From assembly GCA_965214605.1 (NCBI GenBank), contig OZ243961.1, forward strand, positions 640,001 through 704,000: DNA of 64,000 bases. The letters run 5' to 3'. The position numbers were made by a program, and so were the translations under genes. The notes beneath the pieces are model-generated. The model made no database searches. It was not told the DNA's origin and worked only from the letters and a program-made list of their open reading frames with translations. The DNA comes from an uncultured Candidatus Binatia bacterium. GTDB lineage: Bacteria > Desulfobacterota > Binatia > Bin18. Below are positions 5,646-11,074 of the stretch, piece by piece; position 1 is the first letter of the stretch; every line of letters starts with the position of its first letter.

Positions 5646-6854
5646 TCATGCAGCTACCTCGGTCTTGCGCCCCTTTTGATCACGGGGCGGCGATGGGTCG
5701 GGGACAGCAATGGCCTCAGCGTGGACCAAACGGTCAAGAAAACTGCCGAGCAAATTGGTCATAGTCTCGACTTCGAGCAGAAACGCGTCGTGACCCCACG
5801 AGCTCTGGACATCCAGATAGGTGACATCGGCGCCGGCGGCGGTCAGCGCGCTCACCAGCTCTCTGCTGTGATAGCTCGGATACAACCAGTCGCTCGTAAA
5901 ACTGACGACCAGATATTTCAGCGCGGCGGAGTTGGCAAAGGCGGCGGCCAAGGCGCCGGTTGTCGCGCTCAGGTCAAAATAGTCCATCGCCTTGGTGATA
6001 TACAGATAACTGTTGGCGTCAAACCGACGGGTAAAATTGTTCCCTTTATATTTTAAATAGCTCTCGACCTGAAACTCGGTCCGAAATTCATAGCCGTAGC
6101 GGACGCGGTCTTGCAAACGGCGGCCAAACTTCTGCTGCATGGACTCTTCGCTCAAGTAGGTAATGTGACCGACCATCCGGGCAACGGCCAGCCCGGCGTC
6201 AGGCTTGATCTCCGCCCCATAATAGTCGCCATTGTTCCAGGCTGGATCGGCATAAATCGCCTGGCGACCGACCTCGCTCAGAGCGATCAGCATCGGACTG
6301 TGGTGGGCGGTAGTCGCGATCGGTATGGCTGCCCGGACGCGTTGGGGGTAGGTGGCCGCCCACTCCAGGGCCTGCATGCCACCCATTGAGCCACCGGCCA
6401 CACACAGCAGCTTGTCAATCTCTAGGTGATCTAGCAGCCGGACCTGGGCTCGGACCATATCACCTATTGTCACCACTGGGAAATGCATGCCGTACGGCGT
6501 CTGGGTGGCCGGGTCAAGATGAGTTGGACCGGTTGAGCCATAACAGCCGCCTAGGACATTGCTACAAATAACAAAGAACCGATCGGTATCAAAAGCTTTG
6601 CCCGGTCCAATACAATCGTCCCACCAGCCCAGACGTATATCCTCAGGATCATGGTATCCGGCGGCGTGGGCACTTCCGCTCAACGCATGAGTCACCAGAA
6701 TGGCGTTTGAGCGATCCGCATTCAGCCGGCCATAGGTTTCATAGCTAAGGGTTACGGGGCTCAGTGTCGCGCCACTGTCAAGCGGAAACGGGCGCTGCTG
6801 GGCGAAGGTGAGTTCTTGCGGCTGAACAATGCCGACGGAGCCGGGTCTGCTCAT
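5646..6854 (-). CDS. metX: Homoserine O-acyl(acetyl)transferase
   Basis: HALSG, GGSMGGMQ nucleophile, FDANSYL, GHDAFL. Confidence 0.95.
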   Translation of the reverse strand: MSRPGSVGIVQPQELTFAQQRPFPLDSGATLSPVTLSYETYGRLNADRSNAILVTHALSGSAHAAGYHDPEDIRLGWWDDCIGPGKAFDTDRFFVICSNVLGGCYGSTGPTHLDPATQTPYGMHFPVVTIGDMVRAQVRLLDHLEIDKLLCVAGGSMGGMQALEWAATYPQRVRAAIPIATTAHHSPMLIALSEVGRQAIYADPAWNNGDYYGAEIKPDAGLAVARMVGHITYLSEESMQQKFGRRLQDRVRYGYEFRTEFQVESYLKYKGNNFTRRFDANSYLYITKAMDYFDLSATTGALAAAFANSAALKYLVVSFTSDWLYPSYHSRELVSALTAAGADVTYLDVQSSWGHDAFLLEVETMTNLLGSFLDRLVHAEAIAVPDPSPPRDQKGRKTEVAA

Positions 6855-6926
6855 GGGTCGTCTCAGTCAGGGGCACACGGGCCAAAAAAGCGTCAAGAGG
6901 AAGGCAAGCGGGGACCGGGGCTTATT

Positions 6927-8225
6927 CTAGCCAGCGGCTGCCTTGAGTGCCTGATCTAGGTCCCACACAATATCATCAATGTCTTCTAACCCGACACTCA
7001 GTCGGACGAAATCTGGTGACACACCAGCACTCACCAACTCATCTTCGTTGAGCTGACTGTGAGTCGTGCTGGCCGGGTGAATAGCCAGACTCTTGGCATC
7101 TCCGACATTGGCCACATGGCTGTGGAGTTTCAGGCTATTGATGAATTTCTCGCCCGTTTCGCGTCCCCCCTTGATCAGAAAACCCAGGATCGATCCGGGG
7201 CCTTTGGGTAGATATTTTTCGGCTTTGGCATGATCCGGATGCTTGGTCAGGCCGGGAAAGGCGACCGAGTTGACGCCGGGGTGGGCGTCAAGAAACTCGG
7301 CCACCTGTTGGGCATTTTCTACATGGCGCTGCATGCGCAGACTCAGCGTCTCGACCCCCAGCAGGGTGGTAAAGCTATCAAACGGAGCCTGACAGCCGCC
7401 CACATCGCGTAGGATCTGGACCCGAGACTTGAGAATCATGGCCGGGGCGCCCAGGTCGGCGTAGACCAGACCATGATAGGACGGGTCTGGCTCGGTAAAA
7501 TTGGGGAAGCGTCCACTGCGCCAGTCAAAATTGCCGCCGTCAACAATCACCCCGCCAATAGCCGTGCCGTGCCCACTCAGAAACTTGGTTGTGCTGTGAG
7601 TGACAATATGCGCCCCCCACTCAAATGGTCGGCACAGGTAGGGCGTGGCAAAGGTATTATCGATCATGATCGGAATATTATAGGCTCGGGAGACCTCGGA
7701 CACCTCGTCGAACGGAAAGACTGTAATGTCCGGATTGCCCAGAGTTTCACCGTATAAAATCCTGGTGTTGGGCCGCACGGCAGCGGCAAATTCTTCGGAG
7801 TTGGTTGGATCAACAAAGGTCGTCGTAATCCCCAGGCGCGGAAAGGTGTGGGCGAACTGATTATACGTCCCGCCATAGAGGCGACTGCTGCTCACAATAT
7901 GGTCGCCCTGACCACACAGAGCCATAATGGCTATCATCTGGGCCGCGTGGCCACTGCTGGCGACCAAGGCTCCAACCCCACCTTCGAGCGAGGCTAAACG
8001 CTGTTCCAAGACATCGTTGGTCGGATTCATAATACGGGTATAAATATTACCAAGCTCTTTGAGCGCAAACAGGCTGGCCGCGTGTTGGGTGTTTTTGAAC
8101 TGATAGCTGGTCGTGTGATAAATGGGGACCGCCCGACTGCCGGTGGTGGGATCGGGCTCTTGGCCAGCGTGCAGTTGACGAGTGTTAAATCCGTATTGGC
8201 GATCCTGTATTTCATTGGCACTCAT
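6927..8225 (-). CDS. metY: O-acetylhomoserine aminocarboxypropyltransferase (sulfhydrylase)
   Basis: LHAGQ, YTRIMNPT, HSTTKF (PLP Lys), ANVGDAKSLAIHPASTTHSQL. Confidence 0.95.
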   Translation of the reverse strand: MSANEIQDRQYGFNTRQLHAGQEPDPTTGSRAVPIYHTTSYQFKNTQHAASLFALKELGNIYTRIMNPTNDVLEQRLASLEGGVGALVASSGHAAQMIAIMALCGQGDHIVSSSRLYGGTYNQFAHTFPRLGITTTFVDPTNSEEFAAAVRPNTRILYGETLGNPDITVFPFDEVSEVSRAYNIPIMIDNTFATPYLCRPFEWGAHIVTHSTTKFLSGHGTAIGGVIVDGGNFDWRSGRFPNFTEPDPSYHGLVYADLGAPAMILKSRVQILRDVGGCQAPFDSFTTLLGVETLSLRMQRHVENAQQVAEFLDAHPGVNSVAFPGLTKHPDHAKAEKYLPKGPGSILGFLIKGGRETGEKFINSLKLHSHVANVGDAKSLAIHPASTTHSQLNEDELVSAGVSPDFVRLSVGLEDIDDIVWDLDQALKAAAG

Positions 8226-8295
8226 GCACTCTTCTCCCTCTGTGGTGTGCAGTTCGTCTTCGCCTCCCTTGCCAGCGGCGACCAAAAGCTTCCAG

Positions 8296-8434: not shown

Positions 8435-8797
8435 ATGCCAGGCAAATTCTGTGTTTCCCTTACCTCCGCCAAAGACAACCCAGATAAAGCCACCGTCGCC
8501 TTTGTGATTGCCAATGCCTCGGTTGGCTCCGATCAGGACACTCTGGTATTCTTGAGTACCGAAGGGGTTCGTCTGGCGGTCAACGGCTATGCCGATGACA
8601 TCCATGAAGACGGCTTCCTCCCCCTCAAAGAGCTGATGAGCAACTATGCCGAGGCGGGGGGGACGATCTATGTGTGCTCGCCGTGTTTTAAGAGGCGGGG
8701 TCTGGACGAAAACAATCTTGTCCCAGGAGCAACGATCGTCGGGGGGGCTAAGCTGGTCGAGTATCTGGTTGACGGCACGCCGTGTGTGTCGTACTGA
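8435..8797 (+). CDS. DsrE/DsrF-like family protein with CxxC
   Basis: AAGGAGG RBS; VFLSTEGVRL, GGTIYVCSPCFKRRG, GATIVGG, C-terminal Y. Confidence 0.85.
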   Translation: MPGKFCVSLTSAKDNPDKATVAFVIANASVGSDQDTLVFLSTEGVRLAVNGYADDIHEDGFLPLKELMSNYAEAGGTIYVCSPCFKRRGLDENNLVPGATIVGGAKLVEYLVDGTPCVSY

Positions 8798-8875
8798 TCT
8801 CTCAAGACCCAGGATGTTTTCCCACTTATCGCCCCCAGGTCAGAGACAGGAGTGAGGGCGCAGGAGTTGCAGGGG

Positions 8876-10462
8876 ATGGATGAGCAGACACCGCGGCAGC
8901 ATCCGTACCAACCACACGACAGTTTTGACGGCGGTGACCTCGACTGTGGCAACGGCCTGCTGCTGCTGATCCGCAAATATATCGATCCGCTGACCCCCGG
9001 TCAGCTGCTGGAGATTCTGTCAACCGAATCCTCTGTCGTTGAAGACCTGCCGGCCTGGTGTCGGCTGACCAAAAACGAGCTGGTGTCCCATATTCGGCAC
9101 GGCAAGCAGCATAGTTTTCTGGTCTCTAAGGGACCGTATCACAAGCCGGTCGACCAGGCGCCGGCTCCTCCGCACGTTCAGAAGAGTCGGCGCAAAAAAA
9201 CGCGGCTACCTCGCAGAGAGAGGGAACCAGCACCAATAACCCAGCCGATCAAAGAGGTTGTAATTCCCGGCGAGCTACCGGCCCCCCAACCCGCTCCTGC
9301 CGTTCCCCCCCTGTCGGTTATGAACATCGGCAGCTGGCCGCGTCCGCCGTGGTTGCTTCGGGCGCTGAACGACCGTATCGAAGGCCGGATGTCGGACGAA
9401 GAATTTTCTCAGACTGCCGAAGACGCGGTTCGTCTGGCAGTTGCCGCCCAGCAGCGAGCTGGGGTCCAGGTGTTGACCGACGGGGAGCAGCGCCGCGACA
9501 ACTACGCCAGCTTTGTGGGTGGCCTGCTCGACAACTGTCAGCTCATCCCCATCACTGACCTCCTGTCCTATGTTGATGATCCACACGAATTTGAGCGGGA
9601 GTTACGCGCCCTGGATGTCCCAGCCGGCAAAGTTCGCCATCCGGCCGTGTTTGGTCCCTTAGGTCGCAGCCGCCCGCTCACCGTTCACGAGGCCGACTTC
9701 TTGCGAAGCCTAACCCAGGCGCCAATTAAAATTGCCCTCCCTGGCCCATATCTGTTGACCCGGACGATGTGGATGGAGTGCATTTCAGACCGGGCCTACG
9801 ACAACCGCGAAGACCTAGCTACCGACATTGTTCGGGTTCTACGCGAGGAAATACACTCCCTGCTGGCCGCCGGTGTCTCGTTAGTCCAGCTTGATGAGCC
9901 GGTCCTGACCGAGGTCGTCTTCAGCGGCACGATCAACAACCGCACCTTCATGTGTGGCGCTCTAGGAGAGAAACGCGCACCTGATGCTGAACTGGCATTT
10001 GCCGAGTCACTTATTCAACGGGCCATCGCCGGCCTGCCCCAAGAACGCCTGGCCCTCCACATCTGTCGTGGGAATTGGACCCCGGACGAGAGCGTTGCCC
10101 TGGCTGGTGACTATGTCCCCCTCATCCCGCTTTTGCAAAAGTTACGGGTGGGGACGTTTTTCCTTGAAATGTGCACCCCCCGGGCTGGCGATATGGATGT
10201 CCTCAAAGAGGTTCCAGCCGAGGCGCGTCTTGGTATTGGTGTGGTGAATCAGAAGCACCAAGTGACGGAAAGTGTTGAAGAGGTCCTGACCAGGGCCGAG
10301 CGTGCGGTTAAACTGTTTGGGCCGGAACGGGTACTGTTCAACCCGGACTGCGGTTTTGCCACCTTTGCCGATAACCCGATCGTGTCAGCGCAACAGGCCG
10401 AGCAAAAGCTAGCGGTGATGGTCAAAGCCGCGGCCCTGCTGCAGGAGCGTTATCCGCTCTAG
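8876..10462 (+). CDS. Fusion of a TusA/SirA-like sulfur-carrier domain and a cobalamin-independent methionine synthase catalytic (core MetE) domain; alternative start 8852
   Basis: N-terminus FDGGDLDCG...PGQLLEILST...DLPAWCR; Pro/Arg-rich linker; IGSWPRP, TDGEQRR, PGPY, QLDEP; Zn ligands HICRGN, LE, NPDCGF. Confidence 0.88.
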   Translation: MDEQTPRQHPYQPHDSFDGGDLDCGNGLLLLIRKYIDPLTPGQLLEILSTESSVVEDLPAWCRLTKNELVSHIRHGKQHSFLVSKGPYHKPVDQAPAPPHVQKSRRKKTRLPRREREPAPITQPIKEVVIPGELPAPQPAPAVPPLSVMNIGSWPRPPWLLRALNDRIEGRMSDEEFSQTAEDAVRLAVAAQQRAGVQVLTDGEQRRDNYASFVGGLLDNCQLIPITDLLSYVDDPHEFERELRALDVPAGKVRHPAVFGPLGRSRPLTVHEADFLRSLTQAPIKIALPGPYLLTRTMWMECISDRAYDNREDLATDIVRVLREEIHSLLAAGVSLVQLDEPVLTEVVFSGTINNRTFMCGALGEKRAPDAELAFAESLIQRAIAGLPQERLALHICRGNWTPDESVALAGDYVPLIPLLQKLRVGTFFLEMCTPRAGDMDVLKEVPAEARLGIGVVNQKHQVTESVEEVLTRAERAVKLFGPERVLFNPDCGFATFADNPIVSAQQAEQKLAVMVKAAALLQERYPL

Positions 10463-10588: not shown

Positions 10589-11074
10589 ATGACGCAGCTA
10601 CGCGTAGAGGGCGAGGTCTCCACCCCGCACGATTTTAGCTTTAACGACCTCACTCGGCTGCCCGGCCAAGTCGCCGATGTCGGGCAGTTTGTCCCCGGCC
10701 GGGACGGCAGTGGCGTTCGCCTGCGATCCCTGCTCGATTGGGTTGGCCCCAAAAATAGCGTTCAGTATATTACGCTAGAGTCCAGCGACGGGAAGTTTTC
10801 GGCCAGCCTGCCGGTCACCGCCGTACAAAACGCCATCGTAGCCTATCGGCTAGGCGATGAACCGCTGCCGGCCCAAAAAGGCGGGCCGTTTCGCTTTTTT
10901 ATTCCCCATGCTCAGGAGTGCACGGTTGGCGAGGTTGACGCCTGCGCCAACGTCAAATTTCTTGGTCGTCTCCACCTAAGCCATGAACGCGGTCGAGATG
11001 TCCGTCCAACCAGCCCAGCTTTGCACCAGGCCCACCACGAACGACCGGGGCATGAACATTTGCCCAAAGAATAG
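10589..11074 (+). CDS. Stand-alone small sulfite-oxidase-fold (Oxidored_molyb-like) protein
   Basis: AGGAGG RBS; LRVEGEV, GVRLRSLL, S.DG.F.ASLP, EPLP...GGPFR, CANVKFL; His-rich tail. Confidence 0.75.
   Translation: MTQLRVEGEVSTPHDFSFNDLTRLPGQVADVGQFVPGRDGSGVRLRSLLDWVGPKNSVQYITLESSDGKFSASLPVTAVQNAIVAYRLGDEPLPAQKGGPFRFFIPHAQECTVGEVDACANVKFLGRLHLSHERGRDVRPTSPALHQAHHERPGHEHLPKE

Follow-up and report, generated by a model that had tools for sequence, protein, structure and literature searches.

The window analysed here is a 64,000-nucleotide stretch from an uncultured Candidatus Binatia bacterium (contig OZ243961.1, positions 640,001 to 704,000), in which one gene joins a TusA-like domain through a linker to a core MetE-type barrel. 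The open reading frame (ORF) spans 8852-10462 on the + strand. The ATG at 8876 is likely the start codon, given that an AGGAG lies 8 nt 5′ of it and that the starts of homologues align at the same position. The fusion gene was therefore placed at 8876..10462 (528 amino acids (aa) plus stop), in agreement with an earlier sequence-only reading of this DNA. Pfam assigned two domains to the protein, TusA (33.4 bits, cut-off 28.6) and Meth_synt_2 (PF01717; 103.3 bits, cut-off 21). The TusA-fold domain covers residues ~14-86 (8915..9133), as delimited by the Pfam match, matches to TusA structures in the PDB and AlphaFold2/Foldseek. It is followed by a Pro/Lys/Arg-rich linker at residues ~87-119 (9134..9232), delimited by the predicted local distance difference test (pLDDT) and by gap-rich alignment columns. 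An ordered N-extension (residues 120-147) and a (beta-alpha)8 MetE-type barrel, delimited by Pfam, Foldseek and alignment to the MesD structure 3rpd, occupy 9233..10459. The linker varies in length and sequence across homologues, its columns being unconserved, and pLDDT falls below 50 at residues 101-117. It had been drawn at ~9140-9310; the disorder was found at residues 101-117 but not at residues 120-147, which are ordered (AlphaFold2 pLDDT 85-98) and carry a conserved APITQP...LPxPxPAP motif.

The whole fusion protein was modelled with AlphaFold2 from a 44-row alignment, giving a pLDDT of 88.6. Residues 15-84 of the N-domain adopted a beta-alpha-beta-alpha-beta-beta order. When the N-domain was folded alone (pLDDT 80.7), the top Foldseek match was E. 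coli TusA (3lvj_C; E 2.8e-6, TM 0.87 on the target, rmsd 1.5 A), and YeeD was matched as well. Sequence searches with the N-domain recovered the PDB TusA entries 1dcj and 3lvj (E 3.5e-5). Together with the Pfam score, these matches bear out the TusA fold that had been proposed from sequence. The motifs named with it, DLDCGNG, PGxxLEI (here PGQLLEI) and DLPAWCR, were all present in the translation, and the codons of this and the following residues were checked on the + strand. C24 lies in DLDCGNG (CGNG motif; 8945-8947) and C62 in DLPAWCR (PAWC; 9059-9061). The CPxP motif of TusA (PF01206) was not present in the N-domain, where the Pfam match begins at profile position 14, past the motif; in its place, 23/23 aligned fused proteins have D-C-G-(N/S/G)-G.

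The barrel model matched MetE C-terminal barrels and MesD 3rpd (Foldseek E ~1e-22; TM 0.80 on 3rpd). As anticipated, there is a single MetE barrel with H-x-C, E and C as predicted Zn ligands, namely H395 (10058-10060), C397 (10064-10066), E431 (10166-10168) and C492 (10349-10351). Three further residues, S153 (9332-9334), E204 (9485-9487) and D340 (9893-9895), are predicted homocysteine binders. They align with Ser22, Glu73 and Asp188 of MesD 3rpd, which are given as methionine binders in the accessible text of PMC7857596. In relation to MesD (3rpd) and T. maritima MetE, the barrel carries two insertions, YVDDPHEFERELRALD and another of ~19 residues containing FMCGAL. An insertion and two Cys motifs, WMECIS and RTFMCGAL, had been picked out from the sequence, and the translation and these alignments recovered them all. 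In HMMER alignments, W299 (9770-9772) aligned with the Trp of the SWSY motif of T. maritima MetE, and C302 in WMECIS (9779-9781) stands three residues further. C360 in RTFMCGAL (9953-9955) lies in the insertion directly after the DEP strand that holds D340. We take the SWSY Trp to be the pterin-stacking residue for methyl-tetrahydrofolate in MetE, and the loops bearing C302 and C360 presumably line the donor side of the active site. By this alignment, C302 and C360 would sit in the methyl-donor loops.

The spread of the fusion was then considered. The best 120 database relatives were 498-575 aa long, shared 62-87% identity and covered 93-100% of the protein. A scan of one genome per species gave at least 557 confirmed relatives among 571 candidate stretches, so that the fusion is present in at least 557 species genomes across many phyla, at 58-78% identity. 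Chance as the origin of the fusion is ruled out by this recurrence and by the near-full-length coverage of the best relatives, and so is an assembly error, which the sequence-only reading had raised as a concern. Hosts include other Candidatus Binatia (74-78% identity, with gene order kept), Actinomycetota, Planctomycetota, Acidobacteriota, Myxococcota, Xanthobacter and many Burkholderiales, among them Duganella, Massilia, Paraburkholderia, a Burkholderia multivorans strain and Bordetella genomosp. 12.

Residues were tallied over 203 sequences (121 database proteins and 82 locus ORFs, not de-duplicated, 3 of them from genomes flagged unpublished), counting only sequences with a residue at the column, the rest being gaps. 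The N-domain Cys singled out earlier, C24, was Cys in 197/197, C62 in 196/199, and both C302 and C360 in 201/201. The four Zn ligands were retained in 201/201, and S153, E204 and D340 in every sequence with a residue there (200-201 of 203). Since these three residues are kept and align with the binders of 3rpd, the pocket looks like one that retains homocysteine or methionine pocket character. One fused paralogue, P0129 (503 aa), keeps the TusA Cys motifs but lacks the HxC and the last Cys of the Zn site as well as the two extra Cys, and is a possible pseudoenzyme. P0204, a stand-alone form without Zn ligands, resembles it. The 620-aa P0160 was not counted as a TusA-OsmC-barrel triple fusion because it contains stretches that read like frame-shifted sequence.

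The gene upstream of the fusion encodes a 120-aa DsrE-like protein (8435..8797, + strand; Pfam DsrE 54.3 bits) with a CSPC motif at 8675-8686. It ends 78 bp upstream of the fusion, with a strong ribosome-binding site. In the alignment with its best PDB match, 3mc3, the Cys of 'yvC' falls on the first Cys of CSPC. Partner genes were counted by ORF clustering over 80 related loci and the window (81 loci). A DsrE-like gene was found upstream on the same strand in 74/81 loci (73 by ORF clustering and 1 by tblastn), and four of the seven loci missing it have 406 bp or less of upstream sequence. The DsrE-like proteins share a median identity of ~70%, and the motif VCSPCFKKR is conserved. A small TusA-like protein of ~86 aa, with G-C-G-E-L and PAWC, was encoded in 40/81 loci and is paralogous to the fused domain. 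Both Cys were present in 28/28 aligned fused and stand-alone sequences, the stand-alone paralogues having the motif G-C-G-(E/D/I)-L. The DsrE-like and small TusA-like genes were the sole widely conserved neighbours across the 81 loci. Pfam searches of 73 flanking genes from 26 loci showed no other common partner, and the contexts of the cassette were unrelated. The source genome also encodes a small TusA-like domain, away from the fusion and behind a Cys-rich N-terminal extension. This 221-aa protein (locus L010, 1036-1701, + strand) has a GCG-type TusA-like domain at its C-terminus; its N-terminal part, CxxC...C...CxxC, had no Pfam match, and similar extensions occur in related loci such as L054 and L106.

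Metagenome contigs were searched with stand-alone sister barrels, which gave 80 loci. A split form was seen in 12/80 of them, where small TusA-like and DsrE-like genes are followed by a TusA-OsmC protein of ~242 aa (Pfam OsmC 57 bits, TusA 31.9 bits) and, where the contig reaches, by a separate 381-aa barrel that is 46% identical to that of the window. The DsrE-like protein of the split form is up to 78% identical to the window's. The remaining 66 loci with a called barrel, from Chloroflexota where labelled, had no TusA or DsrE gene. Directly after the stand-alone barrel there was an OsmC-like 1-Cys gene in 48/66 loci, and 20/66 also had a two-domain rhodanese, every one of these together with the OsmC-like gene. 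Both barrel insertions are present in stand-alone relatives and are thus not peculiar to the fused proteins. The Cys at C360 (FMC) was found in 63/64 stand-alone and 11/11 split barrels, and the Trp at the W299 position was kept in 64/66 and 11/11. The C302 position was Cys in 0/66 stand-alone and 0/11 split barrels, which all come with an OsmC-like 1-Cys protein or have one nearby. In the fused family, where OsmC is missing, every sequence with a residue there has Cys. As judged from the alignments, the FMC cysteine C360 and the two insertions mark the whole clade, fused, split and stand-alone. We infer from this exchange that C302 has replaced the OsmC cysteine in function, in which case the working unit would consist of the Zn/homocysteine site, C360, a second Cys and a sulfur-carrier protein. 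The cassette in the window consists of the DsrE-like CSPC protein and the fusion, and the clade is predicted to work with small cysteine proteins rather than with folate.

The position of the fusion among MetE-type enzymes was also assessed. It reached no NCBIfam cut-off, the best score being that of PRK04326 (171.7 bits against 406). An N-terminal folate barrel was not found in the protein, TIGR01371 giving 79.6 bits against 929.95 (model positions 423-606 only) and Meth_synt_1 18.8 against 27; a two-barrel MetE is ruled out by these scores. Among solved structures MesD 3rpd was the closest in sequence, at 95.6 bits, as compared with 343.6 bits for a MesD-like paralogue of the source genome, and PRK09121 gave 113 bits against a cut-off of 392. 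The MesD cut-off in the accessible text of PMC7857596, 'BLASTp hits of 390 hits or higher' to ACIAD3523, is taken here as bits. A quick IQ-TREE of 38 barrels placed the fused proteins in one clade (SH-aLRT 99; 16 rows, one of them a 383-aa entry starting at the barrel). This clade was sister (SH-aLRT 92) to the stand-alone barrels having both insertions and was separate from MesD-like paralogues and from MetE C-domains. The scores and the separate clade rule out membership in MesD. MesA, MesB and MesC were set apart by profile scores, length and neighbours, their reference sequences standing outside the tree: the fusion has 528 aa and an extra domain, falls below PRK04326 as stated and gave 84.1 bits to PRK00957 against 258. 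MesA, MesB and MesC are single-domain proteins that are associated with corrinoid proteins (MtrA, CoFeSP) in anaerobes, and no corrinoid-protein gene was found among the conserved neighbours of the fusion. PF08908 (DUF1852, MesX) had no match in the source genome, which is 99.99% complete, and likewise none in 14 control genomes. The source genome encodes two MesD-like paralogues, at L002 1495-2520 (+) and L004 1426-2493 (-). The first of them (PRK09121 405.9 bits, and the 343.6 bits to 3rpd given above) lies directly 3′ of a gentisate 1,2-dioxygenase-like gene.

Several described systems share parts of this arrangement. Four core families, all of 386 aa or less, were described by Price et al. 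2021 (PMC7857596), in the accessible text of which TusA, DsrE and 'fused' do not occur. By the same text, MesD/MesX is an oxygen-dependent core methionine synthase of aerobic bacteria, in which MesX, needed by MesD, was predicted to provide the methyl group. Like the fusion, MesD is a single MetE-type barrel without the folate domain, has conserved Zn ligands and Ser, Glu and Asp binders, depends on a dedicated partner and a methyl source that is unknown, and mostly occurs alongside MetH or MetE (PMC7857596, accessible text). It differs in that the partners here are TusA, DsrE or OsmC instead of DUF1852, and in that the fusion has 528 aa, two extra insertions and extra Cys. With MetE (EC 2.1.1.14) the fusion shares the barrel fold, the H-x-C/E/C zinc site, the GSWP, DGE and DEP motifs and the Trp after the LPGP strand; in contrast to MetE, it has no N-terminal folate-binding barrel, and its donor-site loops bear invariant Cys. 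The relays TusA -> DsrE/TusBCD -> DsrC/TusE and YeeE-YeeD (TsuAB) resemble the cassette in the TusA fold with a Cys at the N-terminus of helix 1, in a DsrE-fold partner with a Cys at the canonical position, and in carrier genes that stand together in an operon. Unlike them, the cassette has CG(N/S/G)G or CGEL rather than CPxP, an invariant PAWC Cys (196/199), a CxxC in the DsrE-like protein, and a MetE-type Zn barrel at its end; a literature search found no sulfur relay ending in such a barrel. The Phaeocystis 'MetE-fusion' also combines a core MetE barrel with a carrier-type 'swinging arm' domain and a redox domain, the proposal being B12-independent methionine synthesis from an unknown donor (PMC10861871, accessible text). 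It has PP-binding (ACP) and CzcO/Pyr_redox_2 domains and no TusA, is eukaryotic and marine, and represents a separate fusion event. No paper on the fusion or the cassette was found in a search that left most subscription journals outside, so that a mention elsewhere is possible. The family appears to be a variant within the MetE superfamily whose partner system is unreported.

In the window, metX and metY (5646-8285, - strand; PRK00175 526.9 bits and TIGR01326 654.6 bits) are divergent from the DsrE-like/fusion operon and share a 149 bp intergenic region with it. They encode homoserine O-acetyltransferase and O-acetylhomoserine sulfhydrylase, the direct sulfhydrylation route to homocysteine. 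This divergent arrangement was seen only in Binatia loci (the window and 7-8 related loci). Our tentative reading, to which we give somewhat less than an even chance, is methionine synthesis by an alkylation of homocysteine that needs a carrier protein but neither folate nor B12. The barrel would bind L-homocysteine with its sulfur on Zn, as in MetE and MesD. The tethered TusA domain, through C24 and perhaps C62, would move between the DsrE-like protein and the barrel, carrying a group or reducing equivalents. C360 and C302, in the predicted methyl-donor loops, would pass the group to the Zn-bound thiolate, and the product would be methionine. The fold, the Zn site, the homocysteine pocket and the metXY neighbours in Binatia are consistent with such a synthase. 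Full-length MetE was not found in 20/30 host genomes, and three fusion-bearing metagenome-assembled genomes (MAGs), of unknown completeness, had neither MetH nor MetE detected. MesD offers a precedent for a partner-dependent synthase. Our guess is that the cassette would add a fifth type to the methionine synthases that need neither folate nor B12, one that relies on a carrier and backs up MetH.

Several points weigh against methionine synthesis. MetE is also carried by 10/30 host genomes, in which a third synthase would be redundant. MetH was found in 30/30 and 46/50 host genomes and in the source genome, that is, in 77/81; with MetH nearly everywhere, the fusion is never clearly the sole methionine synthase. 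No SAM or cobalamin riboswitch was detected in the window or in 10 related loci at the Rfam gathering threshold. The TusA, DsrE and rhodanese families are known as carriers of sulfane sulfur, not of methyl groups, and all partner families are sulfane-sulfur or thiol-redox proteins. Moreover, we know of no chemistry in which a protein thiol passes a methyl group to a thiolate.

The proposal that the tethered TusA domain works as a swinging arm for sulfur or methylthio groups is plausible, and it is strengthened by the conserved DsrE-like CSPC protein, the second TusA-like neighbour and the split form. Its methylthio part is hard to reconcile with the retention of the homocysteine-binding residues in the pocket. 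In the MetE-family reaction the group is added onto homocysteine's own sulfur, so a carrier-borne CH3-S- would have no obvious acceptor. A relay role for the FMC Cys, suggested at the same time, gains support from its context, as C360 is conserved in the fused, split and stand-alone forms.

Because the conserved partners all belong to sulfur-carrier families (TusA and DsrE, with rhodanese in the stand-alone loci), the barrel could instead be a sulfane-sulfur enzyme. TusA, DsrE and rhodanese would bring persulfide sulfur, to be attached to or taken off an amino acid of homocysteine shape at Zn; methionine would then be made by MetH. Homocysteine might be formed in this way from an activated C4 amino acid (e.g. 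aspartate semialdehyde), with C360 and either C302 or the OsmC Cys giving two electrons, or the enzyme might trim MetY-made homocysteine persulfide or S-sulfohomocysteine. This would account for the conservation of two Cys at the catalytic face, C360 being paired either with C302 or with the 1-Cys OsmC-like protein. It requires no methyl donor, which suits a self-contained cassette among unrelated neighbours. The near-universal presence of MetH is what an enzyme producing homocysteine would require, and metX and metY adjoin the cassette in Binatia. On the other hand, the window already encodes the ordinary MetX/MetY route to homocysteine, and the Trp kept at the W299 position in the stand-alone and split barrels hints at a retained donor site. 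The chemistry is one put forward in the present analysis. Characterised MetE-family members move an alkyl group onto a Zn-bound thiolate, and to our knowledge none forms S-S or C-S bonds with persulfides. We regard this explanation as less likely than carrier-dependent methylation, but as its strong rival, ahead of all others.

The same partners could serve protection rather than catalysis. The barrel would then be a core methionine synthase with an ordinary small-molecule donor, while the TusA, DsrE-like and OsmC-like proteins keep the active-site Cys reduced or protected in aerobes, or reactivate it. E. coli MetE is inactivated by oxidation of a Cys near the active site, OsmC is a member of the thiol-peroxidase family, and Duganella, Massilia, Paraburkholderia and Xanthobacter are soil or water aerobes. 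A CxxC is present in the DsrE-like protein, automatic naming labels the Atlas clusters nearest to it 'predicted peroxiredoxins', and OsmC-like proteins stand beside the split and stand-alone barrels. A pure guard, though, is unlikely to be fused, invariant and more conserved than its enzyme, and the DsrE-like protein holds 70-78% identity across phyla as compared with 46-65% for the barrel. Neither the rhodanese nor the TusA Cys at the canonical persulfide position is explained by a guard, which we consider improbable.

A PhnC/PhnE-type ABC importer lies between the DsrE-like gene and the fusion in 17/81 loci, all labelled Burkholderiales or other proteobacteria, with a second DsrE-like gene after the importer. 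Its binding protein (L041 3514-4401 and 16 other loci) gave 284.6 bits to HtxB (PDB 5me4), and a PF12974 binding-protein homologue adjoins 8 distant stand-alone barrels. We take HtxB to be a hypophosphite-binding protein. PHO4, PhoD-like and metallophosphoesterase genes were seen near the importer in some loci. That the substrate is an imported oxyanion of phosphorus, sulfur or selenium, with the barrel alkylating or transferring to a thiol other than homocysteine, outside methionine synthesis, is the least probable explanation. Against it stand the restriction of the importer to these 17 loci, with none in the window, and the invariance of the Ser, Glu and Asp that bind homocysteine.

Some other features were recorded around the fusion. 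Directly downstream of it in the window, 10589-11074 (+) encodes a 161-aa protein that matches positions 72-162 of 169 of Oxidored_molyb only (59 bits), with weak similarity to SoxC/SorT. This molybdopterin-domain gene and a NUDIX gene, also downstream, were dropped as parts of the system, being common only to the nearest Binatia relative. Four Binatia loci (L013 10819-11838 and 3 others) encode a CobW/COG0523-type GTPase (cobW 142.3 bits), a putative metal chaperone, whose gene has the same orientation as the fusion and lies ~3 kb downstream. Xanthobacter and Bordetella genomosp. 12 have two genes between the DsrE-like gene and the fusion (L087 3788-4333 and 4347-5939; L062 3884-5978), encoding a 181-aa membrane protein with CIGC and a 530-aa secreted protein with a C-terminal anchor, neither with a Pfam or NCBIfam match. 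A MetE-like 345-aa frame in four Binatia genomes has one in-frame TAG within the match, and several Planctomycetota MAGs have one in-frame TGA within the MetH match, for which match overrun, frameshifts and recoding are all conceivable causes.

Taken together, carrier-dependent methylation ranks first, at somewhat below an even chance, followed by persulfide chemistry as its strong rival, with the redox guard and the imported oxyanion lower. The cassette could thus represent a novel means of supplying a MetE-type zinc site, by protein-Cys carriers (TusA, DsrE, OsmC or rhodanese) in place of folate or cobalamin, either as a fifth, carrier-dependent methionine synthase with its methyl group formed or handed over on cysteines, or as a persulfide-fed homocysteine synthase in which C360 and C302 (or the OsmC Cys) would act as a reducing dithiol. 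To this statement we attach a confidence of roughly one in three, put as a possibility rather than an expectation.

The fused family bears on how aerobic bacteria can obtain methionine independently of B12 and of methyl groups on folate. After MesD/MesX, it is the second case in which a core MetE barrel is coupled to partner proteins of its own, and it is widespread, occurring in at least 557 species genomes. Its partners are recognisable cysteine carriers that come in fused, split and swapped forms, in a two- to three-gene cassette that is also present in cultured hosts. The database names '5-methyltetrahydropteroyltriglutamate--homocysteine methyltransferase' and 'sulfurtransferase TusA family protein' are probably wrong or incomplete for these proteins. 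Sulfur delivery by the carriers would make the cassette the first sulfur relay with a MetE-type enzyme as its end-point; delivery or generation of the methyl group by them would amount to a new C1 route.

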